Below the pieces are notes generated by a model. The model was given only the letters and a program-made list of their open reading frames with translations. It searched no databases and was not told the origin of the DNA. Made by a program: the position numbers and the translations under genes. DNA of 19,932 nucleotides from a virus. Its lineage: Duplodnaviria; Heunggongvirae; Uroviricota; Caudoviricetes. Shown here one piece after another: positions 362 to 19,932 of this stretch (position 1 is its first letter; every line of letters begins with the position of its first letter). Location: the IMG/VR virus record IMGVR_UViG_3300028591_000113, positions 110,087-130,018 of that record. The stretch is one strand, 5' to 3'.

Positions 362-363
362 TA

Positions 364-2597: not shown

Positions 2598-2599
2598 TC

Positions 2600-2628: not shown

Positions 2629-2688
2629 ATATATGTAATGTTAGCCACAAACATTATTTATTACTTAACATCAATAAGGAGATATTTA

Positions 2689-2955: not shown

Positions 2956-3026
2956 TTAGTTGTTAATGTGGCAACAAATGATTAATAAAAACAAAAACAA
3001 ATAGGAGTTACAAAAAACACAAATTT

Positions 3027-3908
3027 ATGGCAGATTTTTTAAGAACAAACAACGTAAAAATCGTCGGTCATTTAATTAGTGCCGACATGAAAACTGGTGC
3101 TCGTAAAGATACAGGTGCTGGTTACATTTCCGGTAATGCGGTCGTTCAATCCGTTATCGGTGGTGAAAAGAAAGAATTTGAAATTTCTTTCTATGCAAAT
3201 GAACAAACTCAAGACAAGAAAGTCAGCAAACTTTATACATCTTATTCTAAGATGAATGAATTAGTTGGCAAGAAAGTCGAAATCACAGGCGAACTTAGAG
3301 AAAATCGTTATTACAGCAATAACGCTAAACAATTAGTTTCCGCTCAACAAATCTCAGGTCGTTTCGTTCGTGGCGTTTCTGAAGCAACAGATGATGTCGC
3401 AACATTTGAATTAGGCGGCTTCGTCGTCTCAGAACTTACAGAACGTAAGAATAAAAAAGATGAAATCTATCGTTATGACTTACAATTAGGTCAAGCTAAC
3501 TATGCTGGTAATGCAATGTCTATCTTCACAGTTAGCGCTCGTCCATCAGACATTGACATCATCAAAGGTTTACAAAGCATGTATCGCGCAGGCGACACAG
3601 TTGTTGTTAATGGTATGTTAGACTGGGTCGTTGAAGTTGTCACAAAAGAAAGTGATAACGTTGGTTTCGGTTCTGGCGCCGTCCATTCTTACACAAATAG
3701 AATGAGAAGCTTCTGGATCAGCGGTGGTTCTAAAGTCGTTGAAAAAGAAGAAGACGGTAAATACACTCAAGGTTTAATCCGTGACTTACTTAGTGCTTAT
3801 AAAGCCAAAGACGTCGAATTAATGGACAGTGCTAAGAAAAATAGTGATGGTGATAAAGAAATTGAAGAAAAACCTCCAGTCACCAGTCGTCAAACAAGCT
3901 TAATTTAA
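3027..3908 (+). CDS. ssb: Single-stranded DNA-binding protein (probable tandem OB folds), 293 aa
   Basis: N-terminal NNVKIVGHL and KKVEITGELRENRY, second OB-like unit (GDTVVVNGML), charged tail, and position next to sak and the helicase. Confidence 0.7.
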   Translation: MADFLRTNNVKIVGHLISADMKTGARKDTGAGYISGNAVVQSVIGGEKKEFEISFYANEQTQDKKVSKLYTSYSKMNELVGKKVEITGELRENRYYSNNAKQLVSAQQISGRFVRGVSEATDDVATFELGGFVVSELTERKNKKDEIYRYDLQLGQANYAGNAMSIFTVSARPSDIDIIKGLQSMYRAGDTVVVNGMLDWVVEVVTKESDNVGFGSGAVHSYTNRMRSFWISGGSKVVEKEEDGKYTQGLIRDLLSAYKAKDVELMDSAKKNSDGDKEIEEKPPVTSRQTSLI

Positions 3909-3924
3909 TAAAACTTTAATAAAT

Positions 3925-3949
3925 AAGGGCGGTGTAACAACCGCCCTTT
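3925..3949 (+). terminator. GC-rich hairpin AAGGGCGGT-gtaaca-ACCGCCCTT(T) between ssb and sak
   Basis: Perfect 9-bp stem with only a short U-tract, directly followed by the AGGAG RBS of the next gene. Confidence 0.55.
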
Positions 3950-3960
3950 AGGAGAACCCA

Positions 3961-4698
3961 ATGGAAAAAGAAAATACATTTGAAAAATTATATAACATTA
4001 ACTTAGCAGACAAAACAAAAGAAAAAATTGGTTTAAAATATTTAAGTTGGGCTTATGCTTGGGCAGAATTAAAGAAACTTTATCCTGACGCTGAAAGAAT
4101 TGTTTATAAAAGAAAAGTTACCACAAAGTCCACAAAGACTATTCCAGTCGATGGCGGTGGTACAGAAGTTATTGAAACAACATATGAAAACGAAATCCCA
4201 TACTTTACAGATGGTAAAACTTGCACAGTTAAGGTTGGTGTTAAAATTAATGGCGTTGAATATGTTGAAGAACTTCCAGTTATGAATAATAAGAATGCCT
4301 CAATCCGCGCAGAAAGTGTAACTTCAACAGACATCAATAGAGCAATTCAAAGATGTTTCGTTAAAGCATGCGCTCTTCACGGTTTAGGTTTATATATTTA
4401 TGCTGGTGAAGATTTACCTGAAGTTGATAAAGTCACTATTGACTATGAAGCATTAAAAGATGATAAGACAGAAGAAATTACTTCTGAACAATTTGAATTA
4501 ATCCGTAAGGAAGTTATTCAAAAAATTCAATCTTCTAAAGATGATTTTGATTCGACATCAAGTGAAGAACTCACAAAATATATTCTTGCATTGTTCAATG
4601 GTAAGAGAATTTCTTTATTAGAATATCCTGTTGACTCAGAAAACCTTCAAAAACTTCATCACTTCTTAATCAAACTTTATTCTCTCATTAAGAAATAA
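3961..4698 (+). CDS. Sak/Rad52-like single-strand annealing protein (DUF1071-type), 245 aa
   Basis: Motifs LKYLSWAYAW, LPVMNNKN and DINRAIQRCFVKACALHGLGLYIYAGEDLP are characteristic of this phage annealase family. Confidence 0.88.
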   Translation: MEKENTFEKLYNINLADKTKEKIGLKYLSWAYAWAELKKLYPDAERIVYKRKVTTKSTKTIPVDGGGTEVIETTYENEIPYFTDGKTCTVKVGVKINGVEYVEELPVMNNKNASIRAESVTSTDINRAIQRCFVKACALHGLGLYIYAGEDLPEVDKVTIDYEALKDDKTEEITSEQFELIRKEVIQKIQSSKDDFDSTSSEELTKYILALFNGKRISLLEYPVDSENLQKLHHFLIKLYSLIKK

Positions 4699-5102
4699 TG
4701 GCAGAATATAGCAGAAGACAGTTAGAAGAATTAATATGTGAATTAGTGGGAGTAACTCAAATTACTCCCCTAATCAATAAACATATTAGTGAACTAGCGT
4801 TGATTTATAAGATGACGTGGAAAGAAATTGCGCGTTGTCTTACTTATTATGTAGAAGTGGCGCGAGGAACATTGAGGGTTGAATATGGAATTAAAACTCC
4901 ATGTACTTCGGTAAGAGAGAAGGCAGATAAGTATTTTAAACAGTTGGAGCTTGACCAACGCAAACAACAAGGCGAAGCCGCCAAAGTTGTAGAGTATCAA
5001 GAAAATAATATTATATTCAATATCAAATCATTACAAAATAAAAAAAGACAACCAAAACAATATGACATTAACGAGATAGACGTTAATAAAGGAGACCAGT
5101 AA
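4698..5102 (+). CDS. Hypothetical helical protein, 134 aa (possible helicase loader, by position only)
   Basis: TAATG-coupled to sak and ends 1 nt before the helicase. No diagnostic motif. Confidence 0.7.
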   Translation: MAEYSRRQLEELICELVGVTQITPLINKHISELALIYKMTWKEIARCLTYYVEVARGTLRVEYGIKTPCTSVREKADKYFKQLELDQRKQQGEAAKVVEYQENNIIFNIKSLQNKKRQPKQYDINEIDVNKGDQ

Positions 5103-5103
5103 A

Positions 5104-6708
5104 ATGGCATCTGTAATTAGTAAAGATTTATTCGATACTAATGCGTCTACGTATGTATTAAGTTACTTAATGCACGATCCGTTGATTTTGCAAAATGATA
5201 GATTCACATTTTGTAAAGATGATTTTTATAAACCATTACAACAAATGGTGTTTTATGCGATATTTAATATGGCTCAACTTGGAACGGAGAAAATATCTCC
5301 GCAAGATATTGACCTATATTTAAAACAATATGACGCGCAATACGAATTTTATAAAAGAGAAAAAGGTTATGAGTTCGTAATGCAATGTTATCAGATTGCA
5401 GAGTCTGAAGACGCAAAGTTATTTGAATTTTATTACAATAGATTAAAAAAGTTCTCTTTTTTAAGAGATTTAGAGGCGATTGGTTATGATACCAAGGAGT
5501 TTTATGATACTCAAGCAAATGCCTTAAATAAAGACTTAGAAGATGAACGACTCAACAAAACATCTTTAGATGCTATTGGCAACAGAATTAGGGCGCACCT
5601 AGTTGAAATTGAAAATAGACATATCGGTAAAGATGATAGCACATCTCAAACCGCCGCAAAAGGTTTACGTCATTTAGTTGCGGAATTAAAAGAAAGTCCA
5701 GAAGTTGGTTTACCACTTGATGGAGAAATTATTAATTATGCGGCGAGAGGTGCCAGATTAGGAAAATTATATACATATAGCGCACCATCTGGTCAAGGTA
5801 AAACTAGATATATGGTTGGTAATGCTTGTGCAATTAGTTTTCCTTATATAGACAAGGATAGCGGTAAAATTATTTATCGTGGAACCTTGGAACAAGATGA
5901 TTACCAAAAAATAGTATATATTGCAACTGAACAAAAGGCCGATGAAATTCAGACCTTGATTTTAGCATACGTAAGTGGTGTTAATGAAAGAAATATTCTT
6001 CTTGGAAGTTATACGCCAGAAGAAGAAGATAGAATTAATAAAGCACTTGATATTATTGAAAAATATCAAGACAACTTTATGATTGAGTATATGTCTGACC
6101 CAAGTATCGCGCAAGTCAAGACAGTTATGGCAAGATATATTATTCAACATAATATACAATATTTATTCTATGATTACATTTTTAGTAGTCCAGGATTATT
6201 GAGTGAGTTTAGAGACGTCGAGGTTCGTGAAGACGTCGCTTTAATGATGCTTTCAAATAGTATCAAGGAAACTGCAAGTAATTATAATGTTTTTATTCAA
6301 AGCGCGACTCAATTAAATGAAAACTGGAGTAAAAAGGAAATAGGACCAAGAGACCAGAACTGTTTAAGAGGTTCTAAAGCGATCGCGGATAAAATTGATA
6401 TTGGTTTAATTGGTGTTCGTTTGGGTGAAGCAGAGATGAAACAAATTGATGCTGTTTTAAAAGAATTGCGCGCTCAAAACCCAATTAAATATAAAAGAGA
6501 CCCTAATATCGTAATTGATATTTATAAGAATAGACGTGGCGAATTAAATAGTGTTAAGGTGTTTAGATATTTTGATTATGCCACTTGTCATGCTGAAGAT
6601 TTGTTTATAACAGATTGCAGTTATAAAGCAGTTCAGGAAATTGGTCAATTAAAATATGACCAAAGACCATTTGACTACTTAGACTTAAAAACTAGAGGTA
6701 TCTTATAA
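5104..6708 (+). CDS. dnaB: Replicative DnaB-family (SF4) helicase, 534 aa
   Basis: Walker A APSGQGKT, IATEQ, Walker B LFYDYI, SATQLN, GSKAIADKID, KNRRG. Confidence 0.92.
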   Translation: MASVISKDLFDTNASTYVLSYLMHDPLILQNDRFTFCKDDFYKPLQQMVFYAIFNMAQLGTEKISPQDIDLYLKQYDAQYEFYKREKGYEFVMQCYQIAESEDAKLFEFYYNRLKKFSFLRDLEAIGYDTKEFYDTQANALNKDLEDERLNKTSLDAIGNRIRAHLVEIENRHIGKDDSTSQTAAKGLRHLVAELKESPEVGLPLDGEIINYAARGARLGKLYTYSAPSGQGKTRYMVGNACAISFPYIDKDSGKIIYRGTLEQDDYQKIVYIATEQKADEIQTLILAYVSGVNERNILLGSYTPEEEDRINKALDIIEKYQDNFMIEYMSDPSIAQVKTVMARYIIQHNIQYLFYDYIFSSPGLLSEFRDVEVREDVALMMLSNSIKETASNYNVFIQSATQLNENWSKKEIGPRDQNCLRGSKAIADKIDIGLIGVRLGEAEMKQIDAVLKELRAQNPIKYKRDPNIVIDIYKNRRGELNSVKVFRYFDYATCHAEDLFITDCSYKAVQEIGQLKYDQRPFDYLDLKTRGIL

Positions 6709-7781
6709 TGGATATAAGAGAACTTAGAGAACAATTAAGCGACGAGTCGATAAAAGAGATATTGGCGCAATTCAATGTTGAGCCAGTAGATGAAAATGAG
6801 GAAAGAATAATCTTTCCTACTTGTTGCCATAATTTAGAAGGCGGTAGTCCAAAGTTATTTTACTATAAAAACACCAAGTTATTCCATTGTTATACTGAAT
6901 GCGCGGCTTCATTCGACATCTTCACATTATTGCAAAAGATGTATGCGTTGCGCGGACAAGAGATAACATTAAAACAAGCGATTGAAATCTGTAATTTAGA
7001 TACAAGCACACTAAAGCCAGAAGATCGCGCATATAATTGTCTTGATGATATTAAATATATGCAGGAGTTAAATAACTTTTATATTCCTGATGTAGATAAT
7101 TTAGATTTTAAGAAATACGATAGAGGTATTTTGAAGAATTATCCATTCAATTATATGGGATTAATGCCTTGGATACAAGAAGGCATTGGAATTGAAGCGC
7201 TTCAACGTTTCTCAATAGGTTATGATAATTACCATCAAGCCATTATTATTCCTAACTTTGATTATAATGGAGACCTAATTGGTGTTCGTGCGCGTTTCTT
7301 TAAAGAAGAAGATGTTAAAAAAGGTAAATATAGACCTTTATATGTAAATGGCCAGTTATATAATCACCCAACTGGTCGAACATTCTATGGTATTTATGAA
7401 AACCATAAGAATATTGAAAGAAAGAAAACTGCAGTTATCTTTGAGGGTGAAAAGTCAGTATTGTTATTTGAAACAATTTATGGTGCAAAAGATAACATAT
7501 CATTAGCAACATTGGGACAAAACATTACTAAAGACCATATTCAGTATTTATTAAAGATGAAAGTTACTCATGTAATTTTGGCTTATGATACTGATTATGA
7601 AGATTACGACCAATTAAAAGAAGTTGATAAAAAATATAGAGAAAAGGCTAAAATTTTTAGTCCTTACTTCAATGTAAGTTACTTACTTGATGATGACTTT
7701 ATACTTCCGTATAAGTCTAGTCCTATTGACGGCGGCCGCGAAACATTCGAACATTTATTACAGAATAGGAGAATTGTATAA
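6708..7781 (+). CDS. dnaG: DnaG-type DNA primase, 357 aa
   Basis: N-terminal zinc-binding region (TCCH...FHCYTEC), TOPRIM VIFEGEKS and LAYDTD; TAATG-coupled to the helicase. Confidence 0.88.
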   Translation: MDIRELREQLSDESIKEILAQFNVEPVDENEERIIFPTCCHNLEGGSPKLFYYKNTKLFHCYTECAASFDIFTLLQKMYALRGQEITLKQAIEICNLDTSTLKPEDRAYNCLDDIKYMQELNNFYIPDVDNLDFKKYDRGILKNYPFNYMGLMPWIQEGIGIEALQRFSIGYDNYHQAIIIPNFDYNGDLIGVRARFFKEEDVKKGKYRPLYVNGQLYNHPTGRTFYGIYENHKNIERKKTAVIFEGEKSVLLFETIYGAKDNISLATLGQNITKDHIQYLLKMKVTHVILAYDTDYEDYDQLKEVDKKYREKAKIFSPYFNVSYLLDDDFILPYKSSPIDGGRETFEHLLQNRRIV

Positions 7782-7957
7782 TGAATAAGTTTTTAGATAT
7801 TTTAGGAAATATATTTATAGTTATTTTATGTATATTATCTCTACCATTCCTGATCGTGTTCGCGGCTATCGTGGCGGTTATTTATGCCTTATTTGTGATA
7901 GTTTGCCTCCCTTACTGGGTAGTGCGCTACCTAATCTTGGAGGATGATTATGAATAG
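7781..7957 (+). CDS. Small membrane protein, 58 aa (missing from the ORF track)
   Basis: MNKFLDILGNIFIVILCILSLPFLIVFAAIVAVIYALFVIVCLPYWVVRYLILEDDYE-TAG. It has a TAATG overlap with dnaG, overlaps the recJ start and contains about 40 continuous hydrophobic residues. Confidence 0.7.
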   Translation: MNKFLDILGNIFIVILCILSLPFLIVFAAIVAVIYALFVIVCLPYWVVRYLILEDDYE

Positions 7958-9767
7958 AGTAGAATTAAAATTAAATTCAATAAAAATGTATGACAGTAGA
8001 ACCGAGAATTTCTCATATGGTCTAGGATTCTTGGCGCAATACTTAATGAACTTAGGTATTGATAAAAAAGACGTGATGTGTTTTATCGACAAGCCACGTG
8101 ATACAGATCAAGATAATCCCGAACTATTAGATAATATCAAAGAAGCCGCAGATATGTTAGTTACTCAATTAGATTGTGGCGCCAAAGTATTTATCCAAGT
8201 AGATAGTGATACTGATGGTTATACATCTTCTGCTGTCTTAATTAATTATATTACACGTAGATGGCCAGGAGCGCGCATTGTTCATAGGTTACACAATGGC
8301 AAAGAGCATGGTATTATTTTAGAAACTGTGCCAACAGATTGCTCTGTTGTTATTATTCCTGATGCGGGTTCAAACCAGTTCTATGAACAAAATTATTTAG
8401 CAGACTTGGGCAAAACAGTAATTGTGCTTGACCACCACGAAGTGGATGAAATACAAGATACCAAAGCAATTATTGTTAACAACCAATTAAGTCCAAACTT
8501 CCCAAATAAAAATTTAAGTGGTGTTGGCGTTGTTTATATGTTTATTCAATATATTGATACACATTACTTCCCAACAGAAACTCCAATTTTTAGAGATTAT
8601 TTAGATTTAACTGCGGTTGGTATTATTGCTGATGCTATGAACATGACAGCGCTTGGCAATAATTATATTGCTTATTATGGTTTGAATAATATTAAAAGTA
8701 AGTTCTTACATGAGTTAGCAATCAAACAAAGTCGTGGTATTTCAGACCCTGACCACTTAACAAAGATCGATGTAGCCTTTTATATCGCGCCTGTAATTAA
8801 CGGTGTTATCAGATATGGTGCTCCAGAAGATAAAGAAATGGTATTTAAAGCGCTTACAACATGGCAAGATGACACAGATTATGAAAGCACTTGGCGTGGT
8901 GTGGTAAGACATGAAAACCTTTATCAATATGCGGTGCGCTTAGCCGTTAACGCAAAAGGTCGACAAGATAGTGCGAAAAAGAAATCCTTTGAATGGCTTT
9001 GCGAAAAGGTCAATGAAGAAGGGTTAGATAAAGATAATGTTATTATCGTAACATTAAATGAAAAAGAAAGTGCAAAAGTAAGTCCGAATATTACAGGTCT
9101 TATTGCAATGGAATTAGTCAACCATTACAATAAACCAGCACTTGTATTAAGAAAAACTACCTTTGAAGAAGGAGATAATGAAATCGAAGTTTACGGCGGA
9201 AGCGGTAGAAATGGTAATTTCTATGGTTTACCAGACCTTAAAAGTTTCTTAAAAGAAGCGGGCGCTTTTTATTGCGAAGGTCACGCCAATGCATTCGGTG
9301 CTTTCTTAAAACCAGAGGAAGTTCAACCAATTAGAGATTATGCGAATAAGAAATTAAATGTAAACTCTTTTGAAGAAGTTTATCAAGTAGATTACTGGTT
9401 TGATGGTAAACATCCAGTAAATTACGAATTACTCGAAGTATTCGCTAAACATAAAGCATTGTGGGGTAACTCAATCCCACAACCTAAATTCGCTTTTTCC
9501 GGGCATTATAAGAAGAGTGACATCTTTGTCATGGGTAAAGAGAAAAACTCTTTAAAAATTAATGGTGGGGAAATTAGTTTTGTATCTTTTAATGCTCGTA
9601 AAACAATAGATGAATTAACAGAGAATCCAGAAGGAACATACTTAATTGTTGGTAGACCGCAATTAAATGAATATATGGGTAATGTATCTATTCAAGTTAT
9701 GATAGATGATATTGCTATTAATCCTTCTACACCAACCTCTGCTATATCCTTATTGGATTTAATTTAG
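7950..9767 (+). CDS. recJ: RecJ-like ssDNA 5'-3' exonuclease (DHH family), about 605 aa
   Basis: Motifs VDSDTDG, IPDAG, LDHH, NLSGVGV, GSGR, GHANAFG. The GGAGG RBS at about 7939-7943 favours ATG 7950 over 7944. Confidence 0.9.
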   Translation: MNRVELKLNSIKMYDSRTENFSYGLGFLAQYLMNLGIDKKDVMCFIDKPRDTDQDNPELLDNIKEAADMLVTQLDCGAKVFIQVDSDTDGYTSSAVLINYITRRWPGARIVHRLHNGKEHGIILETVPTDCSVVIIPDAGSNQFYEQNYLADLGKTVIVLDHHEVDEIQDTKAIIVNNQLSPNFPNKNLSGVGVVYMFIQYIDTHYFPTETPIFRDYLDLTAVGIIADAMNMTALGNNYIAYYGLNNIKSKFLHELAIKQSRGISDPDHLTKIDVAFYIAPVINGVIRYGAPEDKEMVFKALTTWQDDTDYESTWRGVVRHENLYQYAVRLAVNAKGRQDSAKKKSFEWLCEKVNEEGLDKDNVIIVTLNEKESAKVSPNITGLIAMELVNHYNKPALVLRKTTFEEGDNEIEVYGGSGRNGNFYGLPDLKSFLKEAGAFYCEGHANAFGAFLKPEEVQPIRDYANKKLNVNSFEEVYQVDYWFDGKHPVNYELLEVFAKHKALWGNSIPQPKFAFSGHYKKSDIFVMGKEKNSLKINGGEISFVSFNARKTIDELTENPEGTYLIVGRPQLNEYMGNVSIQVMIDDIAINPSTPTSAISLLDLI

Positions 9768-9776
9768 GAGAAGATT

Positions 9777-10004
9777 ATGACTATTTCACAATTTTTAGAA
9801 GAACACGGCTTACATTGCCGCACCCCAGAAGAAGAAGATTTTATGTTGAAAGCATTAGACAAAATGTATGTTGAATGGTTGGCGCCAGAGGCTGCTATCC
9901 GTTTAATATTAGATTATTTGGAAAATGCTGATGAAATCTATAGCGACACTATGGCAGAACGAGAAGCAAATGAAAAAGTTCTGGCAGATAGCGAAGAAAA
10001 TTAG
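9777..10004 (+). CDS. Hypothetical acidic protein, 75 aa
   Basis: AGGAG RBS upstream, TAG stop, fills the recJ-dnaE gap. Confidence 0.7.
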   Translation: MTISQFLEEHGLHCRTPEEEDFMLKALDKMYVEWLAPEAAIRLILDYLENADEIYSDTMAEREANEKVLADSEEN

Positions 10005-10013
10005 TATATTATA
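10003..10013 (+). promoter_or_regulatory. Putative -10 element upstream of dnaE (AGTATATTATA, identical to 2621-2631)
   Basis: 11-nt identity with the -10 region of the 2600 promoter. The -35 match is weak (CTGGCA at 9981-9986). Confidence 0.35.
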
Positions 10014-10030
10014 AATAAGGAATAATAGAT

Positions 10031-13000
10031 ATGAGAGATTATATAGGATTGCACAACCACACAGAATATTCAAACGTCAAAGTTATTGACAGTATTAATA
10101 GATTTAACCGCATGGTAGACTATGCGTGGGATTTAGGTTTGTCTGGTTTAGCATTAACAGACCATGACTGTTTAAGTGGAACTTTACAAGCTCTCGATAT
10201 CTATAAAGCAAAACTTAAAAAAGAATGGACTGCGCTTCATCCTGACGAAGAATTGCCAGGATGGGCGGAGATGTCCAAAGAACTAGATTTCAAAGTTATT
10301 TTAGGTAATGAGATTTATCTTAGTGAAGAAGGCTTAAATGAGTCGCAAATGTCTAGTGCTGCTCCGGCTCATTTTTGGCATTTAATTTTATTAGCAAAAG
10401 ATGAAATAGGATTTAGACAACTTAAAGAATTAAGTAGTCGTGCCTGGAGACGCGCATGGTTTAGAGGTATTTTAAGAACACCAACTTATCCAAGCGATTT
10501 AGTAGAAATTATTAGCGCTAATCCAGGTCATATAGTTTGTTCCACAGCATGTCTTGGTAGTTACACCGCATGGTGTTGGAGAAATTATACTATTGCTTGT
10601 AAAGATGACGGCGGTTTGGACTTTATTCCAGACGGCGGACATGACAAACAATGGTATTTAGATAAATTAGATAATCACCTATCTGCGATGCAGAATCTTT
10701 TTGGTGTAGGTAATTTCTTTATTGAATTACAACCAAACGAAAAAGGTAGTGAACAAAATGAATATAATAAGTTTATGTTGGATAGATATTTTCCAGAATA
10801 TCCTTTCATCTTCACTACTGATGCTCACTATTTGAAGGCAGAAGAAAGAAATATTCACAAAGCATTCTTAAATAGTAAAAGCTCAAAAGATAGAGAAGTA
10901 GATGATTTCTATAAATATACATATATAATGAGTCAGGCAGAAGTTCGTAGTTTAATGGATTATGTGTCTGATGAAGTTTTTGAATCAATGGTAGATTGCA
11001 CAAGACATATTAAAGATAGTGTGCAATTCTTTGAAATTGAAAAGCCAAAAGTTATCGCAAAAGTTGAATATGAACACTGGGATGAATATGCCGATGATTT
11101 AGATATGTTCTTAGATATTTCGCAAGACGATTATCCAGTGTTTTATGAATATTTACATACAGAAGATAGAGCAGACAATTATTTAGCGCGTTTAATTGCA
11201 CATGGTTATGCTTTGAAGCAACAACCAAGTTGGGACCAATCTGTGTATTTCGCGCGCATTGAAGAAGAATTAGATATTATTAAAAAGGTTGGCGATGCAA
11301 TTCATCAATCTATGTCTGACTACTTCATTACAATGAGTAAAATGGTTGACTTAATGTGGCAAGCAAACTCTTTAGTTGGACCATCTCGTGGTTCTGCTGG
11401 CGCCATGTTAATTAACTATTTAATTGATATTACACAAATGAACCCAGTTGAGATGGATTTGCCATTTGTTTGGAGATTTATGCACCCATCAAGACCAGAC
11501 TATCCTGATATTGACGTTGACTCTGAAAGCGATAAGCGTGTCGCTGTTTTTAACACAATTAGAGATTACTTCAGAGGATTAGGCGGTGACGTTATTAACG
11601 TTTGTACATTTGGTACAGAAGGAACAAAGAGTGCTATTAAAACTGCGGGTCGTGGCTTAAAAATTGATGATGACGTAATTAGTTATATTACATCAATGAT
11701 TCCAAACGAAAGAGGCTTTGACTGGTCATTACATGACTGTTATTATGGTAATGATGATGATAGAAAACCTATTAGTAACTTTGTCGCGCAAATGAATGAG
11801 TATCCTCAATTATGGGAATTAGCGCAAAGTATTGAAGGTTTAGTTACTCGTTTAGGTGTTCACGCATCAGGTGTTGTTTGTGTTAATGGTGATTTTAACG
11901 AATATAATAGTGTTATGAAAACTTCTAAGGAACAGTTGGTTTCAGCATATGACTTACACACATTAGAAAGATGTGGTGTATTGAAATACGACTTACTTAC
12001 TGTTTCCGCGCTTGACCGTATTCACCAATGTATGAACTATATGTTGGAAGATGGAGTTTTAGAGTGGCAAGGAAGTTTAAAAGAAACTTATAATAAATAT
12101 TTGAATCCAGCAATCTTAGACTATACCAGTCCTGAGATGTGGAAAATGGCAGAAGAAGGACAAATTAGTAGTTTGTTCCAATTCGATACAAACCAAGGAC
12201 AAGTGGCGATGAGACAAATTGGTCCGCAATCATTAAAAGAATTAGCCATCGCGAACTCGGTTATGAGATTAATGAGTGATGGTGAGTTGCCACTAGAAAA
12301 GTATGCACGTTTCAAAAAAGTGCCATCTTTATGGTATGATGAAATGCGCGCTTACGGTTTAAATGAAAATGAAATTAAAGTATTAGAAAAATACTTAAAA
12401 GAAAAGAGCGGTATTGCAGATAGTCAAGAAGTTGTTATGCAGATATCAATGGATCCACAAATTAGCGGATTCAGTATGCAAGAAGCAAACAAATTAAGAA
12501 AGACTATCGCGAAGAAACAATTTAGAGAAATTGAAGCAGTTAAACAATTATTCTTTGATAAAGGTAAAGAAGTAGGTGCATCATATAACTTATTAAGTTA
12601 TATTTGGTATGTTCAAATTAGTATGCAATTAGGTTATTCATTCTCAACAATTCATACTACTGGTTACAGTTTAATTGCTATTCAAGAAATGAACTTGGCG
12701 TATCATTATCCAATTATTTATTGGAACTGCGCATGTTTAAGTGTTGATAGTAGCGCTATAAATAGTTTAGACTTTGATAACTTAATCGAAGAAGATATTA
12801 TCTCTGTCGAAACGGGTGAAAAAGTAGCCAAAAATAAAATGGATTATGCTAAACTCGCATCAGCATTGGATAAGTTTAGTGGAATTTGCGATATTGAACT
12901 TCCAGACATAAATAAGTCTAAACTTAGTTTTATGCCAGATGTTAAGAAGAACAGTATTCTTTATGGATTAAAAGGTATTGCTAAAGTCACTGAACCTGTT

Positions 13001-14077
13001 ATTGCGGAAATTATGATGCACCGTCCATTTGAATCATTAAAAGACTTTTTAAATAAAGTAACAAAGAGAGTTGTTACAAAAGATAAAGTTATTAACTTAA
13101 TTAAATGCGGCGCGTTTAATGAAATTGAAGGCAAGACAACAGAAGAAGTATTAAAAGATTATATTGCTTCTGTTTGCGATTTAAAGAAGAATTTAACAAT
13201 GCAAAATGCAAATATGTTAATTGATTTGTATTTATTACCGCAAGAGTTAAGTTATAACATGGATGTCTATAAATTAACAAAAGAATTGAGAAGACATCGT
13301 GATGAAAATAAGATTTGGTATTGCGCTGATAGATTAGATATTCCAATGAATAAGTTAGATAGTTGGAAACAAATATTTAAGGATAGCGGCATTGAGGGCA
13401 AAGAAATCGTATTAAATGATGAGCCTCGTAAAGTTATTGATAGCGCAAAGTGGGATTTATTCTATGAAAGACAAATGGGTCCTATTAGAAAATATATTAC
13501 TGATAATAAGACTGAATTATTAGATAAATTGAATACTCGTTTATATAATGATGAATGGCAAAAATATTGCCAAGGCGATATCTTACAATGGGAATTAGAT
13601 AGTATGAACTTCTTCTTTAGCGGTCACCCATTAAAGAAGGTTATTAAACAACTTCCAATAGTCATTGATAAAGTTGAGGATGTCGTTGAAGGTGTTCAAG
13701 ATGGTTTCTTCTATATTAAAGGCAAAGAAATTCCAAGAATGAAACTTTATACATTAGCGGGTACAGTTATTGATAAAGATACAACAAAAGGTTTAGTTAC
13801 TTTACAATGTCCAAGTGGCGTCGTGACATTGAAGATTTATAAAGACTTATTTGCAACATTGGCGGCAACAGTTGGTGATGTTAGTATTGAAGGTGAAAAA
13901 GAAATCGAACAAGAAGGTTTCTTTGAAAAGGGGACACATTTAATGGTAACAGGTGTTCAACGTGGTGCAACGTTTGTTCCAAAGGTTTATAAGTCAACTG
14001 GTCGTAAAGCAATTTTAAAGATTGTTTTAGATGAAGACGGTGACTTTGTTGAATTCGAGGAGAAACAAGATGCGTAA
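10031..14077 (+). CDS. dnaE: DNA polymerase III alpha subunit (DnaE, family C), 1348 aa
   Basis: PHP domain (LHNHTEYS, LTDHD, GNEIY, TDAHY), SRGSAG, catalytic PDIDVD, GVHASGV, KYDLL, FQFD, GYSFSTIH and a C-terminal OB fold. No intein splice motifs were noticed. Confidence 0.96.
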   Translation: MRDYIGLHNHTEYSNVKVIDSINRFNRMVDYAWDLGLSGLALTDHDCLSGTLQALDIYKAKLKKEWTALHPDEELPGWAEMSKELDFKVILGNEIYLSEEGLNESQMSSAAPAHFWHLILLAKDEIGFRQLKELSSRAWRRAWFRGILRTPTYPSDLVEIISANPGHIVCSTACLGSYTAWCWRNYTIACKDDGGLDFIPDGGHDKQWYLDKLDNHLSAMQNLFGVGNFFIELQPNEKGSEQNEYNKFMLDRYFPEYPFIFTTDAHYLKAEERNIHKAFLNSKSSKDREVDDFYKYTYIMSQAEVRSLMDYVSDEVFESMVDCTRHIKDSVQFFEIEKPKVIAKVEYEHWDEYADDLDMFLDISQDDYPVFYEYLHTEDRADNYLARLIAHGYALKQQPSWDQSVYFARIEEELDIIKKVGDAIHQSMSDYFITMSKMVDLMWQANSLVGPSRGSAGAMLINYLIDITQMNPVEMDLPFVWRFMHPSRPDYPDIDVDSESDKRVAVFNTIRDYFRGLGGDVINVCTFGTEGTKSAIKTAGRGLKIDDDVISYITSMIPNERGFDWSLHDCYYGNDDDRKPISNFVAQMNEYPQLWELAQSIEGLVTRLGVHASGVVCVNGDFNEYNSVMKTSKEQLVSAYDLHTLERCGVLKYDLLTVSALDRIHQCMNYMLEDGVLEWQGSLKETYNKYLNPAILDYTSPEMWKMAEEGQISSLFQFDTNQGQVAMRQIGPQSLKELAIANSVMRLMSDGELPLEKYARFKKVPSLWYDEMRAYGLNENEIKVLEKYLKEKSGIADSQEVVMQISMDPQISGFSMQEANKLRKTIAKKQFREIEAVKQLFFDKGKEVGASYNLLSYIWYVQISMQLGYSFSTIHTTGYSLIAIQEMNLAYHYPIIYWNCACLSVDSSAINSLDFDNLIEEDIISVETGEKVAKNKMDYAKLASALDKFSGICDIELPDINKSKLSFMPDVKKNSILYGLKGIAKVTEPVIAEIMMHRPFESLKDFLNKVTKRVVTKDKVINLIKCGAFNEIEGKTTEEVLKDYIASVCDLKKNLTMQNANMLIDLYLLPQELSYNMDVYKLTKELRRHRDENKIWYCADRLDIPMNKLDSWKQIFKDSGIEGKEIVLNDEPRKVIDSAKWDLFYERQMGPIRKYITDNKTELLDKLNTRLYNDEWQKYCQGDILQWELDSMNFFFSGHPLKKVIKQLPIVIDKVEDVVEGVQDGFFYIKGKEIPRMKLYTLAGTVIDKDTTKGLVTLQCPSGVVTLKIYKDLFATLAATVGDVSIEGEKEIEQEGFFEKGTHLMVTGVQRGATFVPKVYKSTGRKAILKIVLDEDGDFVEFEEKQDA

Positions 14078-14252
14078 ATGGAAAGATGTTCAAGAAGAAA
14101 AGAATAAACTTGAACGTAAACTAGAAATGATTACGATTAGAAATGCATATCAAGGTTTAATTACAGTTTCTAAATATTGTAATTCATTTGAAGATTTTAT
14201 AAAAAATTTAGAAGTTTTCATTGAACGACTTAATGAAGAGATTGATAAGTAA
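14070..14252 (+). CDS. Hypothetical coiled-coil protein, 60 aa
   Basis: GAGGAG RBS at about 14057-14062 supports ATG 14070, overlapping the dnaE end; TAA at 14250-14252. Confidence 0.65.
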   Translation: MRKWKDVQEEKNKLERKLEMITIRNAYQGLITVSKYCNSFEDFIKNLEVFIERLNEEIDK

Positions 14253-15379
14253 TGAAAGTTACAATTTGAGACCTTGATTATTACTTCTCTGATGAAAAAG
14301 GCGCCACAGTTAATGTAGATGTTCAAAAAATATCTAGTTATCATAAACAGAAGGGTGATAGTGTTAATTTCGTAACATCTGAAAGAGATATATATCGTCC
14401 TTATGATATATATTATATCATTAAAGAAAATAAAAAAACACCTAATCCGCCCATGGAGTTCTTCATGAACCCCAAGGTGCGCTGGTGAGGTGAGGCATAT
14501 AGTATGAAACAAAATTGGAAGATGTCTGACGCGATGCTAGCCTGTCGTCCTGATTATCTTCTATATCCTGAACGATTAACTCGTAATGCCCGCGCAGAGC
14601 AAATTAGATTATTAGGGAACAATAATAAACTATTGCCTATAATCCAGGATTGGGGCAATACTTTAAAAGATAAAAACTATATCGTAACAGATAAGAAATT
14701 ATGGTATGCAGATGAAGAAACAGTTATTGCGGCTTTATGCAGAATACAGAGTGTGCCTAATATCTGTTTTGAATCTCCAATTCCAATTTTAACAATAAAA
14801 AAGAACCCCAATATTTTACAGGAGTTTTGAAAATTAAAGTTCTCTGCGCGTTCACAATTCGAGTTTGTGAGAGTCTATCCAGAAGATATGACAGTAGTCT
14901 TTGAATTTATTGATGAATTTAGAAGATACTTTCCAACTTGCGCGATTCCTCACATTAAACTTGTTTATTCTCGCATACCTTGGCAAACACAAAGTGAAGC
15001 GCAATTAGCGATGAATAATTTAAGAGATATAATTAAAATCGCCAAAATGAATAATATCTATTTAGATATTATTGGACCAAAGAAAAGAAATGAAACACCA
15101 TTTTTCTTTTTACCAGAATTAATGGAAGATTGGTGCAAATTAAACTTTAAAATGGCGTGACTTGAGTATCTAAGTATACGCTTTAAAGTTGATAAGAATT
15201 ATATGTCAGGCTCTACTGACTGAAATAAACCGAATAAATGACATCCGTTATTTAGAGATGCAATTAGACAAACATATGAAGATACTGATTTCTTACTTAG
15301 AAAATGGGGAAATGATAAAGTATCTGAACTAGAAATACCATGAAAATTATGAAAGGAAACGTTTAAGTTAGGTCTATAA
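14252..15379 (+). CDS. 375-aa protein with 8 in-frame TGA (Trp) codons; resembles a phage radical-SAM-like family but lacks the CxxxCxxC motif
   Basis: One frame runs from ATG 14252 (TAATG overlap) to TAA 15377-15379, interrupted only by TGA at 14267, 14486, 14828, 15158, 15221, 15239, 15341 and 15350. It joins track ORFs 14504-14830 and 14867-15160. Motifs include MKVTIWDLD, VQKISSYHKQKGDSV and CRPDYLLYP. Confidence 0.8.
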
Positions 15380-15380
15380 T

Positions 15381-15986
15381 ATGAAATATAAACGTATATG
15401 TGTATTAGATACTGAAACAACTTCAGTATACTGGAATAGCGCTGCGCCGGTTCAAATTGCAGCAGTAATTTGTGATAATAAAGGAAACATAATTGATAGT
15501 TTTAATGAGCGAATTAAAACAACTCATACGATCGATCCTGAGGCTAGTAAAGTTCATGGCATTTATGCAAAAGATTTGGTTAATTGCAGAAGAGAAACAG
15601 AAGTATTAATGGATTTCTGCGCCTGAATGGCAAACCAAGAAGTAGATTGTGTTTTAACTTACAATGGTGAGGCATTCGATAGACCAATGCTTAATTGTCG
15701 TTGTGAAGCGCTAAAAATACCATTTGATTATTTTAATAAAGATAAGTTCCCTGGAATTGATGGATACTATGATTGTATCTATTTAGCTAAGAAACAAAAC
15801 TTATTTGGATTAAAAGATAAGCTAGGTAGAAAATGGAAACTTACATTAGTTGCAGAAGCACTTGGGTTTAGTAGCGAAGGCGCGCATGATGCGCTTGCTG
15901 ATGTAATGATGCTTAAAAACATTTTCTTTAAAGTTGACCCAATTATTCATCCAGAACATTGGGAAGGCTCAGAAAGTTTATTCTAA
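15381..15986 (+). CDS. DEDDh 3'-5' exonuclease (DnaQ/epsilon-like), 201 aa, one in-frame TGA
   Basis: ExoI DTETT lies in track ORF 15381-15626; ExoII YNGEAFD and ExoIII HDALAD lie in ORF 15627-15986. The two are in frame and separated only by TGA 15624-15626. Confidence 0.9.
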
Positions 15987-15990
15987 ACAA

Positions 15991-16017
15991 AAAAAGGACT
16001 AGTAATTAGTCCTTTTT
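15991..16017. terminator. Bidirectional intrinsic terminator between convergent genes
   Basis: AAAAAGGACTA-gtaat-TAGTCCTTTTT, with A/T tracts on both sides. It overlaps the holin stop codon. Confidence 0.8.
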
Positions 16018-16356
16018 ATTATTCATGCCATTGTACCATTCGATACAAGAATCAATATAAGCACCGAGTTGGTCAACAAATGGATCTATATTAAGACCTG
16101 CAGCTTTTGCACTAGCCTTAACTGAATTAATAACTGCTTCTTTTTTCGCCACACCCTTAAGAGTTGAATGTTCAAATTCTTTCATAGCAGCATCAGCCAT
16201 AGTCATAAGTATATCCCACCTTTCTTTGGCTGTCTTTTCTTTCACGGCTTTAATTCAACCTTTAATTGCAAAGAATGTTGCAACACCTGTGCCGATTAAG
16301 CCAAATAAACCACTAAGTAAAGCAATTAATCCATTAACTGTGGTAATCCAATCCAT
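16006..16356 (-). CDS. Holin-like protein (LL-H-type architecture), 116 aa, one in-frame TGA
   Basis: AGGAG RBS, then MDWITTVNGLIALLSGLFGLIGTGVATFFAIKG[TGA 16255-16257]IKAVKEK... One N-terminal TM helix followed by an amphipathic tail (GVAKKEAVINSV...AGLNID...IDSCIEWYNGMN). Confidence 0.65.
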
Positions 16357-16367
16357 ATCAATCTCCT

Positions 16368-16874
16368 TTATTTATTTGTGGGTTCTGAGGGTAATTTCAT
16401 TACTTGTTCATGTAAATTATCCACAACACCGTTCTTACCTAAATTATGATAAGACCAATAGAGTTCATCAAATTCTGTCTTTTCTAAATCACTTGCCCAG
16501 CCGCGATCAACATAAATTTTGCCGTCTTGACGTAAACTACGACGAACGTCTTTTTGCATAGCTTTCTTCATGGAAAGAAGTTCTTCATCAATGTCGTCCA
16601 GTTCTTTGGTAACATTCTGATCCATGTTATCAATTTTCTTTTCAACGTCTTGTTTTAATCCTTTGATTTGTTCATGAACGTCTTTTTTAATTGCGTCGTC
16701 ACGGTCTTTGTTTTCTTGTTTACGCGTCTGTTCACGCAATTTTTCTAATTCAGCTTGGTCATCTTCTTTCTTCTTTTGTCTTTTATTTCACCAAGTGGTG
16801 ATTATTAGACCAATTATTGTTGTGAAAGCAACGTTGATGCCGCCAACGATAAGACCTATAATTACACCTTCCAT
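16368..16874 (-). CDS. Membrane-anchored coiled-coil protein of the type found beside phage holins, 168 aa, one in-frame TGA
   Basis: GGAGG RBS, then MEGVIIGLIVGGINVAFTTIIGLIITTW[TGA 16788-16790]NKRQKKK..., a coiled coil, and C-terminal ELYWSYHNLGKNGVVDNLHEQVMKLP. That last motif is recalled from phage lysis-region proteins. Confidence 0.7.
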
Positions 16875-16933
16875 TATATAGTGTTACCTCCACGACTTCA
16901 TCAGTAATCGTTACTGTCCTACTCTATATTAGT

Positions 16934-16962
16934 AATATGAAAGGAATTATAGAGAAAAGCAA
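16934..16962 (-). promoter_or_regulatory. Putative sigma70-type promoter for the holin pair, TTGCTT-N17-CATATT
   Basis: Same -35 hexamer and spacer as the 2600 promoter; the -10 differs by one base. Confidence 0.4.
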
Positions 16963-17015
16963 ATTCGTTTTTATCTACCAACAATAGTATAATAACTATG
17001 TATAGGAGAAATAAC

Positions 17016-17210
17016 ATGGAAAAACAAGATATTACAAACTTCAGAGATTCTCTTGCTAATATGTCTATTGAAGAACTTGAGAATATGATGAAAGACTTAA
17101 AGAATCAAATCAATAAGATGATTTTAGATAGTGATTTAATCATTAAGGTTGCCATCGTTGACCAAAAAATTAAAGATAAGAAAGGTGAATCTGATGGCGA
17201 AGTTAAGTAA
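17016..17210 (+). CDS. Hypothetical helical protein, 64 aa
   Basis: AGGAG RBS at 17004-17008 favours ATG 17016; TATAAT at 16988-16993 upstream; overlaps the ruvC start. Confidence 0.7.
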   Translation: MEKQDITNFRDSLANMSIEELENMMKDLKNQINKMILDSDLIIKVAIVDQKIKDKKGESDGEVK

Positions 17211-17910
17211 AGAACAAATTCAAACAGAAGTAGAAGCAAAAGGTTATAAATTATTGAGCGCAGAAGGCTATTCAAATATGAATAGTATTATTGTTGTTCA
17301 ATGTGACCATGGACATACTATTGAAGTTAGTATGGCTGATTTTCGTCGTGCCAGTTTTGAATGTCCTTGTTGTAATACTGGTAAAGTAGAAAATCCTATA
17401 AAAGTGCCTGAAAAAACAGGATATCGTGTTATTGCGTTTGACCAGGCAACAGAAAAGTTTGGTTTAAGTATTTGAGACGATGGTAAATTAGTATTTTTTA
17501 ATTTATACGCATTTACAGGCGCACTCAATGTTAGATTAGCAAAGATTAAAAAGTTACTTGAAGAAGTAATTATTCCTGAATGAAAACCAGATTTTATTGT
17601 ATGTGAAGATATACAATATCAATATGGCGCGGTTTTAACCTATAAAGTATTAGCAATGTTGCTTGGTATTATTGAAGTAACCTGCACCGAAAAAGGCATT
17701 CCTTATGAAGTAGTTAGTCCAAATGTTTGAAGAAAATATGCGGGAACTTGCGGAAAAACACGTCAAGAAGAAAAGATGCTTAGTGTTGCTACTGTTAGAC
17801 AGAAGTATCAAGTAAATGTAAGTGATGATGTTGCGGAAGCAATACTGATAGGCAGCTATGGTGCAAAAGTTCATAAACGTCAATTAGAATTGGCATTTGG
17901 TAAAAAATAA
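17194..17910 (+). CDS. ruvC: RuvC-like Holliday junction resolvase with an N-terminal zinc-ribbon, 238 aa, three in-frame TGA
   Basis: TGA at 17473, 17581 and 17728; TAA at 17908-17910. RuvC-type motifs are IAFDQAT, VCEDIQ, VSPNV[W]RK and DDVAEAILIG. The N-terminus has QCDHGH...CPCC. Confidence 0.85.
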
Positions 17911-17918
17911 ATAAAATT

Positions 17919-17944
17919 AAAGACCCCTTAATTGGGGTCTTTTT
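17919..17944. terminator. Bidirectional intrinsic terminator
   Basis: AAAGACCCC-ttaatt-GGGGTCTTTTT between the convergent ruvC and nucleotidyltransferase genes. Confidence 0.85.
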
Positions 17945-17945
17945 A

Positions 17946-18539
17946 TTATTCTTCTATTTGCTGAAGAGCTCATTGGTAAAGTATTTTAATTTTTTCTAAA
18001 TCTTGTTGATCATGAGCAATATTAATATTAGTTATTTGTTCTTCGGTTAAATCATATGACTGATTTAGTAAAATATAAAGAGTGGTTAAAATATGATATA
18101 AACCTTTTTTACTATGCTGTTTTTCTTTTCATTGAATTAGAGTTTTTCACATACGTTCTTCATATTGTAAAATATCAAACTGATCAATAACTGGATATAA
18201 GGTGCCAATTAAATTTTGTCGATATTTATATAAATATGCATAAATCGGTCAATGATCTATAAAAGATTCATCATATTTTTCATTATAACGAAAAATGATT
18301 TGGTAAGAGCCATCAAGATCATGTATTTGTCTACTTAAAGTTCGACATTTTTTTATTCGTTCTCTGTCATAATATCGATGTTTTCATACTAAGATAATAT
18401 CTACATCATGAGGATTTGTAATATATGGAACTGAAAAAGACCCACCAATTCAAATACACTGTAATTCTTCTTCATTTTGATGAAAAAAGTTAATTAATAT
18501 TGTTTTAATCTGATCATCCAGCACTTTGGTCTCAAGCAT
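17946..18539 (-). CDS. Pol-beta-superfamily nucleotidyltransferase-like protein, 197 aa, six in-frame TGA (missing from the ORF track)
   Basis: AGGAG RBS, ATG 18539, tandem TAA TAA stop. The sequence LQCI[W]IGGSFSVPYITNPHDVDIILV[W] gives the hGS...DxD signature, followed by a helical C-terminus (GLYHILTTLYILLNQSYDLTEEQI). Confidence 0.75.
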
Positions 18540-18909
18540 ATATATCTCCTTCTATTTGTAAATCTATATTAAAATCATAAATTTCTGCCTCAGTATAATA
18601 AAGATAAAACCATACCATATTATTAGAATCTACAGATCCTAACTCATAATCTTCACGTTCATATGTATCAGAACTAGTATTAACATACAAATAAGATACT
18701 GTAATATTAACATCAAAAGAATTAGGATTCTCAATACGTAAAAAAGCATATCAGCCTGTATCTTCATCATAATCACGAGAGGCATAAATATTTAACTCTT
18801 GATATGTAGCATCAGGAAAAACCTTGGTACCGCCATGATAGACGGTGCTTATCGAAGCGGTACCATGTTTTACTATTGTAATATTGGTTGAACCATGTTT
18901 AATTGCCAT
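18505..18909 (-). CDS. Small probable virion/tail-associated protein (134 aa if all TGA are read through; 125 aa if TGA 18532-18534 is the stop)
   Basis: AAGGT RBS. The N-terminus MAIKHGSTNITIVKHGTASISTVYHGGTKVFP has the repeated hG motif seen in phage tail-associated proteins. One internal TGA (DTG[W]YAF) precedes a beta-rich C-terminus. Confidence 0.65.
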
Positions 18910-18910
18910 A

Positions 18911-19932
18911 CTATGAAATTACCTTATCGAAAACTGTAGCGTTACTTGCATATATGGAATTGCTACTAACACTAGTACTATTGTTGAAAGTCATTGTAGT
19001 TCCTGAAATACTCGCTAATTGGATTGATTCATAATACAAATAGTAACTACTTTGCGAGTTTGCATAAACACCAACAACTCCTCGAATGACGCTACCATCT
19101 TGATAATATCCATTTGCGGAACATGCAGCTATAGCACTGGTAAAACCAAGATTATATAATGCAGTATTAATACTATATCATGATGTATAGGCTGAACTTA
19201 CAGAGTTTATAAAAGAAAAAGTGCAAACAATTGATGAACCAACTCCAACTTGAATGTTATGCTGATATCTTGCTACACTTGGACCAATAGGACCTGCTGG
19301 ACCACTTGGACCTTGAGGACCACTTGGACCTCTAGGACCTGTAAGACCACTTGGACCTTGAGGACCCTGAGGACCAATAGGGCCAGTTAAGCCACTAACA
19401 CCTCTAGGACCACTTGGACCTCTAGGACCTGTAAGACCACTTACACCCTTAGGACCACTTGGACCTTCTGGACCATCTGGACCTGTAAGACCAATAGGAC
19501 CACTAGGACCGCTTGGACCTTGAGGACCAGTAAGACCACTTACACCTCTAGGACCACTAGGACCTTGAGGACCTGTAAGACCACTTACACCTCTAGGACC
19601 ACTTGGACCACTAGGACCTTGAGGACCTGTAAGACCCATAGGACCTTCTTCACCTCTAGGACCGTCAGGACCTTGAGGACCTTGAGGACCAGTTAAACCA
19701 CTTACACCTCTAGGACCACTAGGACCTTGAGGACCTGTAAGACCACTTACACCTCTAGGACCTGTAAGACCTTTAGGACCACTTGGACCTTCAGGACCTT
19801 CTAATCCTTGAGGACCAGTAAGACCACTTACACCTCTAGGACCACTAGGACCTTGAGGACCTGTAAGACCACTTACACCTCTAGGACCACTTGGACCACT
19901 AGGACCTTGAGGACCTGTAAGACCCATAGGAC
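18911..19932 (-). CDS. Collagen-repeat tail fibre protein (3' part; start lies beyond the window), one in-frame TGA
   Basis: At least 72 uninterrupted Gly-X-Y triplets, then a roughly 120-aa Ser/Tyr/Asn-rich head domain. The frame continues through TGA 19178-19180 to TAG 18911-18913, 1 nt before the next ATG. Confidence 0.88.
19277..19932. repeat. Collagen-coding tandem repeat region, including a perfect 127-nt direct repeat (19518-19644 = 19806-19932)
   Basis: Recurrent 45-nt unit encoding [15 protein letters not shown]. The two long copies are identical base for base at a 288-nt period, and the second is cut by the window end. Confidence 0.9.

Follow-up and report, generated by a model that had tools for sequence, protein, structure and literature searches.

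A conserved boundary of TGA use behind dnaE in a large gut phage that probably reads TGA as tryptophan

Results

Genes at the junction

The window analysed in this study is a stretch of 19,932 nucleotides (nt), the last 19.9 kilobases (kb) of a 130,018-base-pair (bp) virus record (IMGVR_UViG_3300028591_000113, Caudoviricetes). Its subject is the junction at position 14252, where genes without any in-frame TGA codon abut genes that stay open only when TGA is read as a sense codon. Positions are those of the window unless genome positions are named. On the left lies dnaE, which encodes the alpha subunit of DNA polymerase III (10031-14077, plus strand) and contains 0 TGA and 25 TGG codons. The next open reading frame (ORF) is small (14070-14252, plus strand); it encodes 60 amino acids from an ATG behind GAGGAG (73 amino acids from 14031), with no TGA and one TGG. 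The TAA stop of this ORF overlaps the ATG of the following gene as TAATG (14249-14254). That gene, here called g14252 (14252-15379, plus strand, 375 amino acids), is the first recoded gene, with seven TGG and eight TGA codons (codons 6, 79, 193, 303, 324, 330, 364 and 367). The genes at the junction are spaced by -1 to +2 nt. The boundary thus lies between co-oriented, abutting genes without a change of strand. An earlier reading of the letters alone, without database searches, had described the TAATG overlap, the TGA at codon 6 and the absence of a strand switch, and all of these were confirmed.

The two sides of the junction differed sharply in their codons. To the left, 12 ORFs contained 0 TGA and 46 TGG in frame; to the right, eight genes contained 24 TGA and 17 TGG (Fisher exact p = 8.8e-11). 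The sequence-only reading had counted 0/47 and 22/17, so its overall contrast stood and its exact figures did not. In the left-arm genes TGA appeared 64 and 279 times (343) in the two other frames and never in frame among 4,594 codons. Because TGA is frequent out of frame and missing in frame, base composition is not the cause of the gap. Under translation table 11 the right-arm genes were called as fragments, and under table 4 they were intact, which agrees with the earlier claim that all eight need TGA as a sense codon. Every gene of the window stops with TAA or TAG, never with TGA.

The product of g14252 belongs to a family of 162 representative clusters. Its predicted model had a pLDDT (predicted local distance difference test) score of 93.7, and no significant fold match was found in the PDB. 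Assignment as a radical S-adenosylmethionine (SAM) enzyme was rejected: the best PDB matches, B12-dependent radical-SAM enzymes, reached only E = 3e-3 with a template-modelling (TM) score of about 0.3, and the protein has no cysteine triad. A weak match to phrog_9298 ("radical SAM") was likewise not accepted. The protein is 36% identical to its orthologue in the related contig L007, and the neighbouring genes are 63-68% identical. RNA-library contigs of two runs matched the window up to position 14437 and then diverged; therefore g14252 varies between co-occurring strains.

TGA columns in relatives and homologues

The alignments indicate that TGA is a sense codon for tryptophan. Between the window and L007, aligned tryptophan codons switched between TGA and TGG six times; the other substitutions at TGA columns were mainly to aromatic or hydrophobic amino acids, namely phenylalanine (three times) and leucine, tyrosine and isoleucine (once each), with glutamine once. 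Three relatives (L233, L234 and L236) have no sense TGA, so the comparison with them is not circular. They carry TGG at six of the eight TGA sites of g14252. Codon 82 of the exonuclease gene downstream of g14252 is TGG in the same three relatives and in L235, and it aligns with a phenylalanine of the PolC exonuclease structure 2p1j. In the RuvC-like gene, codon 179 (counted from the ATG at 17194) occupies the SPNV-W-RK column, which is TGG in the Bacillus phages vB_BceM_WH1 and Edson.

Protein homologues gave the same picture. Across 120 RuvC homologues, two of the three TGA columns held tryptophan in 120/120 and 120/120 sequences, and the third held phenylalanine, tryptophan or tyrosine. Among 72 full-length homologues of g14252, tryptophan reached as many as 58/72 at the TGA columns against a background of 1.1%; the columns were rich in tryptophan or aromatic residues, and glycine, cysteine and serine were not enriched. 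For glycine, the meaning of TGA in code 25, 11 TGA columns were tested, and it was seldom or never present in them. The sequence-only reading had preferred tryptophan to glycine or selenocysteine and had pointed to homologue columns as the check. The check turned out in its favour: tryptophan, phenylalanine and tyrosine dominate the columns, not glycine, cysteine or serine, and the non-recoded relatives have TGG there.

Distribution of TGA over the genome

Genes of the whole record were called under table 4, which gave 137 genes. The structural block (genome 1-30.7 kb) had a TGA/TGG ratio of 67/47, the early genes with the tRNA array (30.9-69.4 kb) 1/114, a mixed middle region (70.6-107.5 kb) 108/103, the replication module (107.7-124.3 kb) 0/51, and the right arm of the window (124.3-130.0 kb) 24/17. 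Taken together, the early and replication blocks have TGG at 165 of their 166 tryptophan codons. All 137 called genes (137/137) stop with TAA or TAG. Because TGA is not a stop in any called gene, there is no second code: the genome uses a single code in which TGA would be tryptophan, with TGA-free zones, and the left arm can be read under either code. The earlier description as "two genetic codes" therefore had to be given up. The table-4 calls over the full genome, part of the check that it had proposed, showed that TGA is concentrated in the structural and lysis genes, while the early genes avoid it. Nor is the junction at 14252 the only boundary: this mosaic genome has several.

CheckV rated the record as complete, and IMG/VR classed it as linear. 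One collagen-like tail-fibre gene is cut by both contig ends. Its N-terminal part lies on the minus strand at genome 2-988, where the open frame with collagen repeats passes the contig start; its C-terminal part lies at the right end of the window. As one gene is split over both ends, the genome must be either a circle or circularly permuted. The late structural block at genome 1-30.7 kb is thereby extended by the minus-strand genes on the right of the window. Phage DNA was present in sheep- and goat-gut metagenomes. Cultured phages gave no megablast match to the junction region.

Two other elements were seen in the genome. A gene for an NrdD-like anaerobic ribonucleotide reductase with one TGA (genome 17135-19018, minus strand) lies inside the structural block, beside the tape-measure gene. 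A full-length ROOL RNA (RF03087, 196 bits; genome 69793-70386, plus strand) stands at the end of the TGA-free early block, directly before the first TGA-containing genes.

A tRNA-Trp(UCA) with a second anticodon-like arm

The genome encodes 33 tRNA genes. One of them, a tRNA-Trp(UCA) at genome 88929-89025 (plus strand), stands apart from the main array and precedes the window by 21 kb. Such a tRNA, sought elsewhere in the genome as the sequence-only reading had advised, was therefore found. It is 97 nt long and scored 58.9 bits against RF00005. Its body is of the tryptophan type, with A1-U72, G2-C71 to G5-C68, G73 and a Trp-like anticodon stem; the first three features make up the bacterial tryptophan identity set (review PMC9976931). 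The ARAGORN call "tRNA-SeC" was rejected after the sequence was read. A preprint reported that 13/13 phage tRNA(UCA) inserted tryptophan in E. coli extract (10.1101/2025.10.30.685624). An Rfam search beside the tRNA found no ribozyme. The same earlier reading had suggested looking for a tryptophanyl-tRNA synthetase (TrpRS) or a release factor 1 (RF1). Neither turned up: the whole genome contained no TrpRS domain (PF00579) and no release-factor domain (RF-1, PF00472).

The variable region of this tRNA forms a second hairpin, whose 7-nt loop, GUCCAAA, is a copy of a CCA anticodon loop. A pattern scan of IMG/VR returned 42 unique tRNAs of this build, and 41/42 had the CCA hairpin (loop N-U-C-C-A-N-N), with 36 different covarying stems among the 41. 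The hairpin occurred in 0/25 selenocysteine-like tRNAs and in 1/121 hits in prokaryote genomes. The single exception among the 42 was the tRNA(UCA) of the relative G001 (L014:1432-1529, the same as L060; DnaE 63% identical), whose variable region is equally long and has no CCA loop. ARAGORN called it "tRNA-Phe(aaa)", a call that was also rejected after sequence reading. Among viral contigs with the same anticodon stem, 42 unique two-arm tRNAs were counted among 79 long-gap stretches, against 19 ordinary stretches; the ordinary form thus does not outnumber the long-armed one. Loci with a two-arm tRNA gained long open frames when TGA was taken as sense. A literature search found no description of a tRNA with a second anticodon-like arm. 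The likeliest role of the CCA hairpin would be to supply the host TrpRS with the anticodon determinant that is lost by the change of C34 to U.

Conservation of the boundary

The gene string DnaB-primase-RecJ-DnaE-g14252-exonuclease, or the part covered by each locus, was found in seven lineages. Four of them are recoded: the window, L007/L008 (DnaE 63% identical), L011 and L235. None of their replication genes contains TGA, and the codon first appears right behind dnaE: in L007 and L235 within the gene abutting dnaE, in L011 within a small ORF located there and within the g14252 homologue that follows. L235 forms a TAATG overlap from the stop of dnaE itself and the start of the next gene, and in three lineages there is either contact or overlap between dnaE and the genes downstream. 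At codon 6 of g14252, 4/4 recoded lineages have TGA, and non-recoded relatives have TGG or GTT.

The small ORF at 14070-14252 had no family match. L007 lacks it, and the small ORF that L011 has in this position is not a homologue. Because the TAATG-forming ORF of the window is lineage-specific, the end of dnaE is the conserved landmark. The sequence-only reading had named, as a scenario that would remove its regulatory interpretation, a left arm recently imported from a code-11 phage. Four diverged recoded lineages share this boundary, which excludes such an origin.

Among the relatives without sense TGA, L233 (JGI 3300043317, a 50.9-kb contig) has the same replication gene order and uses a TGA stop in 4/13 genes. 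In the examined genes of L234 and L236, TGA was absent both as a sense codon and as a stop. The three relatives look like stages of stop-codon capture. In L234 (3197-7998) and L235 (2902-8001), inserts with HNH endonuclease genes interrupt dnaE, leaving it in two or three pieces; the HNH gene of L235 contains the single TGA of a module that is otherwise TGA-free.

Other genes of the window

Downstream of g14252 lies a gene for a DnaQ/RNase T-type 3'-5' exonuclease (15381-15986, plus strand, 201 amino acids; PF00929 2.5e-16, phrog_192 6e-33), with one TGA (codon 82) and three TGG. It converges with a holin gene (16006-16356, minus strand, 116 amino acids; phrog_6918 1.7e-7, weak PF09682) that has one TGA (codon 34) and three TGG; a two-way terminator-like hairpin lies between them (15991-16017, both strands). 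Next comes a 168-amino-acid membrane protein (16368-16874, minus strand; one TGA at codon 29, three TGG) that combines a transmembrane segment at its N-terminus with a coiled region. It matched phrog_4257 (5.5e-13), a phage family without characterised function, and is probably a lysis partner.

A RuvC-like Holliday-junction resolvase with an N-terminal cysteine-rich domain (17194-17910, plus strand, 238 amino acids; phrog_159 4.5e-22) is encoded with three TGA and no TGG. A second two-way terminator-like hairpin (17919-17942, both strands) separates it from the gene for a nucleotidyltransferase-like protein (17946-18539, minus strand, 197 amino acids), which has six TGA and no TGG and whose matches to PF18765 (5e-4) and PF22014 (2e-4) were both below the cut-offs. 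The gene at 18505-18909 (minus strand, 134 amino acids, three TGA and one TGG) encodes a protein without assigned function. The last gene is the C-terminal part of the collagen-like tail fibre (18911-19932, minus strand, one TGA; PF01391 2.8e-35 and tail-fibre PHROGs), cut by the contig end. The recoded set listed in the sequence-only reading thus held for the exonuclease, the resolvase and the holin-type proteins; its nucleotidyltransferase had only the weak matches given above.

On the left, the replication module and small ORFs at 104-14077 (plus strand) carry 0 TGA and 45 TGG, and all end with TAA or TAG. PHROG matches identified, all on the plus strand, a topoisomerase II-like gene (364-2583) and genes for a Sak-like annealing protein (3961-4698), a DnaB-like helicase (5104-6708), a primase (6708-7781) and a RecJ-like exonuclease (7944-9767). 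The closest cultured relatives of DnaE were Bacillus SPbeta-like and Enterococcus phages, with 35-37% identity.

Transcription and host

No terminator-like site was found on the plus strand from dnaE to the strong hairpin at 15991-16017. For this reason, and because the genes abut, it is plausible that dnaE, g14252 and the exonuclease gene share one transcript. Scans for sigma-70-type promoters showed no excess over shuffled sequence in the left or the right half, and are therefore silent on transcription units. Most of the window was covered by metatranscriptome contigs of four RNA runs from sheep gut, and one contig (X14, 13685-14436) spans the junction. These contigs were not counted as evidence for co-transcription, since a contig is no proof of one continuous transcript and DNA may be present in RNA libraries.

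The host is probably a standard-code bacterium of the Bacillota, because the cultured phages closest to it in DnaE and RuvC infect Bacillus and Enterococcus and because L233 uses a TGA stop. A c-di-GMP-I riboswitch aptamer (RF01051, 58.8 bits; cyclic di-GMP, c-di-GMP) lies at genome 74858-74933 (plus strand), upstream of a 191-amino-acid gene without family match, and suggests a host that makes c-di-GMP.

Discussion

We believe it likely that the window is the junction of the replication module and the late genes in a 130-kb tailed phage of the sheep rumen, and that this phage has TGA decoded as tryptophan by its own tRNA(UCA) and keeps TGA out of its early and replication genes. In this model, the tRNA(UCA) would probably be charged by the host tryptophanyl-tRNA synthetase. 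Genes that are needed before the tRNA builds up, that is, the early genes and the replication module through dnaE, would have to stay TGA-free. Genes that are able to wait may carry TGA, such as g14252 and those for the exonuclease, the holin-type proteins, the RuvC-like and nucleotidyltransferase-like proteins and the tail fibre. Before the switch, translation of the right-arm genes would end at the first TGA, and g14252 would yield a peptide of five residues. After the switch, TGA would be read through and full-length products would be made. The timing of this switch is what we infer from the distribution of TGA.

Several observations weigh against this model. The middle region mixes TGA-free with TGA-rich genes, so that a simple split into early and late is too neat. 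One gene of the early block (genome 48326-48754, plus strand) has TGA at codon 51 of 142. TGA also occurs in the genes for a proofreading-type exonuclease, a DNA ligase and a dUTPase, which are perhaps expected early. The genome also showed no peptidoglycan hydrolase in a search with eight Pfam families, and with PHROGs on 20 further proteins, though holin-type genes are present. As none was found, this search does not count against a wall-less host. Finally, TGA lies earlier in genes than TGG over the whole genome (p = 0.003), but this bias drops to p = 0.07-0.15 once the first 20-60 codons are excluded, and wrongly extended gene starts could create it.

We give next to no weight to the idea that TGA means something other than tryptophan (selenocysteine, glycine as in code 25, or serine by way of the long-armed tRNA), or that the window is an assembly chimera. 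It is true that ARAGORN first called the tRNA "SeC" from its length of 97 nt and its long arm. The acceptor stem nevertheless has 7 bp and the body is of the tryptophan type, against the 8 bp of the selenocysteine type, and the TGA columns hold tryptophan, phenylalanine, tyrosine and leucine, not cysteine, glycine or serine. A chimera is contradicted by the same architecture in several independent assemblies and by one DNA run that contains 97% of the sampled words. It is also highly improbable, if less so, that the host itself is a code-4 Mollicute that reads TGA as tryptophan, so that no switch takes place and the TGA-free blocks have another cause. The absence of TGA stops in the genome and of any endolysin family would suit such a wall-less host. 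With a constitutive code 4, TGA would be expected throughout without bias between gene classes, and the early and replication blocks have 1 TGA against 165 TGG. A code-4 host gives no reason for these 165/166 TGG, a pattern held in four recoded lineages. It also fits poorly with the TGA stop of L233, a relative of the same gene order, and with nearest cultured relatives that infect Bacillus and Enterococcus. If the enzyme of the host could charge tRNA(UCA) anyway, the extra CCA hairpin would serve no purpose. The c-di-GMP-I riboswitch points the same way; Mycoplasma-type Mollicutes are not known to have c-di-GMP signalling.

The two remaining explanations concern what the TGA codons are for. 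One is tolerance only: TGA drifts from TGG under A+T pressure wherever late translation suffices, and the boundary, without any regulatory role, marks merely the end of early need. We lean against this explanation but take it seriously. It accords with the genome's 29-37% G+C, with the free exchange of TGA and TGG between lineages at the same tryptophan columns, with the many recoded genes that have a single TGA, and with non-recoded relatives of the same gene order. It accounts less well for genes that use TGA only (RuvC 3/0, nucleotidyltransferase-like 6/0), for the conserved TGA at codon 6 of g14252 and for the weak 5' bias. The other, the stronger form of the sequence-only reading, is a selected gate within the operon: dnaE and the two genes after it would share one mRNA, and selection would maintain TGA, above all that at codon 6, as a timer, so that replication proteins would be made first and the downstream proteins once the tRNA is present. 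It does not compete with the favoured model but sharpens it, and we offer it tentatively, as something we rather doubt. In its favour, there is contact or overlap of the genes in three lineages, no terminator-like site precedes 15991, and codon 6 remains TGA in 4/4 recoded lineages while other tryptophan sites flip between TGA and TGG. The genome-wide 5' bias agrees with it, and TGA is the first tryptophan codon in 28/41 mixed genes, where 22.2 were expected. On the other hand, that bias weakens when the first codons are left out and may be a start-extension artefact, the TGA at codon 6 may be common to the four lineages by descent, and a promoter inside the 3' end of dnaE is possible, given a promoter scan without excess over shuffled sequence.

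The arrangement resembles systems that have already been described. TGA-recoded "Agate" phages of animal guts have genomes of about 127 kb, replication machinery in the standard code and several recoded structural and lysis modules (bioRxiv 10.1101/2021.08.26.457843). The present phage is like them in size (130 kb), in its ruminant-gut source, in TGA as the probable tryptophan codon with a suppressor tRNA(UCA), in its TGA-free replication machinery beside recoded lysis and structural modules, in the spread of the recoded modules and in the depletion of TGA as a stop. The comparison covered size, source and layout. Borges et al. also reported variable recoding of replication genes across clades, proposed that recoding times late translation, and found TGA stops depleted in close standard-code relatives (bioRxiv 10.1101/2021.08.26.457843). 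Three features go beyond the Agate description: the boundary directly behind the dnaE stop in four recoded lineages, the TGG at the same columns in non-recoded relatives of the same gene order, and the TGA codons in exonuclease, resolvase, ligase and dUTPase genes. The sequence-only reading had stressed recoded DNA-processing enzymes as new; this novelty is weak, since ligase and dUTPase carry TGA here as well and variable recoding of replication genes is among the findings of Borges et al.

Block-wise coding is the basis of the Mgcod tool and is known from crAss-like and other phages (10.1101/2022.06.29.495998; Peters et al., PMC9523058). Those phages likewise have blocks with and without the reassigned stop codon, and their late genes are recoded. 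Their cases are mostly TAG to glutamine in phages of Bacteroidota, whereas TGA would be tryptophan here and the TGA-free blocks, without any TGA stop, are code-neutral. The "code-change module" of the Jade phages combines tRNA(UCA), TrpRS and RF1 (Borges et al., bioRxiv 10.1101/2021.08.26.457843). The present phage shares with them a phage-borne tRNA(UCA) for the change of TGA to tryptophan; unlike them, it showed no TrpRS (PF00579) and no release-factor domain (PF00472), and its tRNA has a second CCA hairpin instead. As in Mycoplasma and Spiroplasma (table 4) and their phages, TGA would be read by a tRNA-Trp(UCA). In Mycoplasma and Spiroplasma, TGA is a general tryptophan codon in all genes; unlike there, 165/166 tryptophan codons are TGG in two large blocks of this genome.

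Conclusions

The pattern is real, sharply bounded and conserved, and patterns of its kind have been reported before from large phages of the gut and rumen. What is new is the exact and conserved position of the boundary, the non-recoded relatives that fix tryptophan without circularity, and the correction to a single code. The most unusual item, the suppressor tRNA with two anticodon arms, lies outside the window. For annotation, genes of such a genome should be called under code 4 throughout, and TGA-free zones should not be mistaken for a second code or for foreign DNA.

A more far-reaching proposal is that the boundary lies in one transcription unit under selection and forms, together with the two-arm tRNA, a self-contained code-switch device without proteins. 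We consider this rather unlikely. If it were true, the tRNA(UCA) would be a translational timer dividing one operon in two, with replication proteins up to DnaE made early, g14252 and the proofreading-type exonuclease made late, and the TGA at codon 6 as the gate. Independently of that proposal, the junction offers a comparative example of how genes are partitioned, at one gene junction, into those that must be readable by a naive host ribosome and those that may wait. Its position is stable across lineages with about 60% protein identity, and relatives with the same gene order are not recoded. This set of lineages is well suited to the study of stepwise stop-codon capture and to the question of whether TGA acts as a timer or is merely tolerated.

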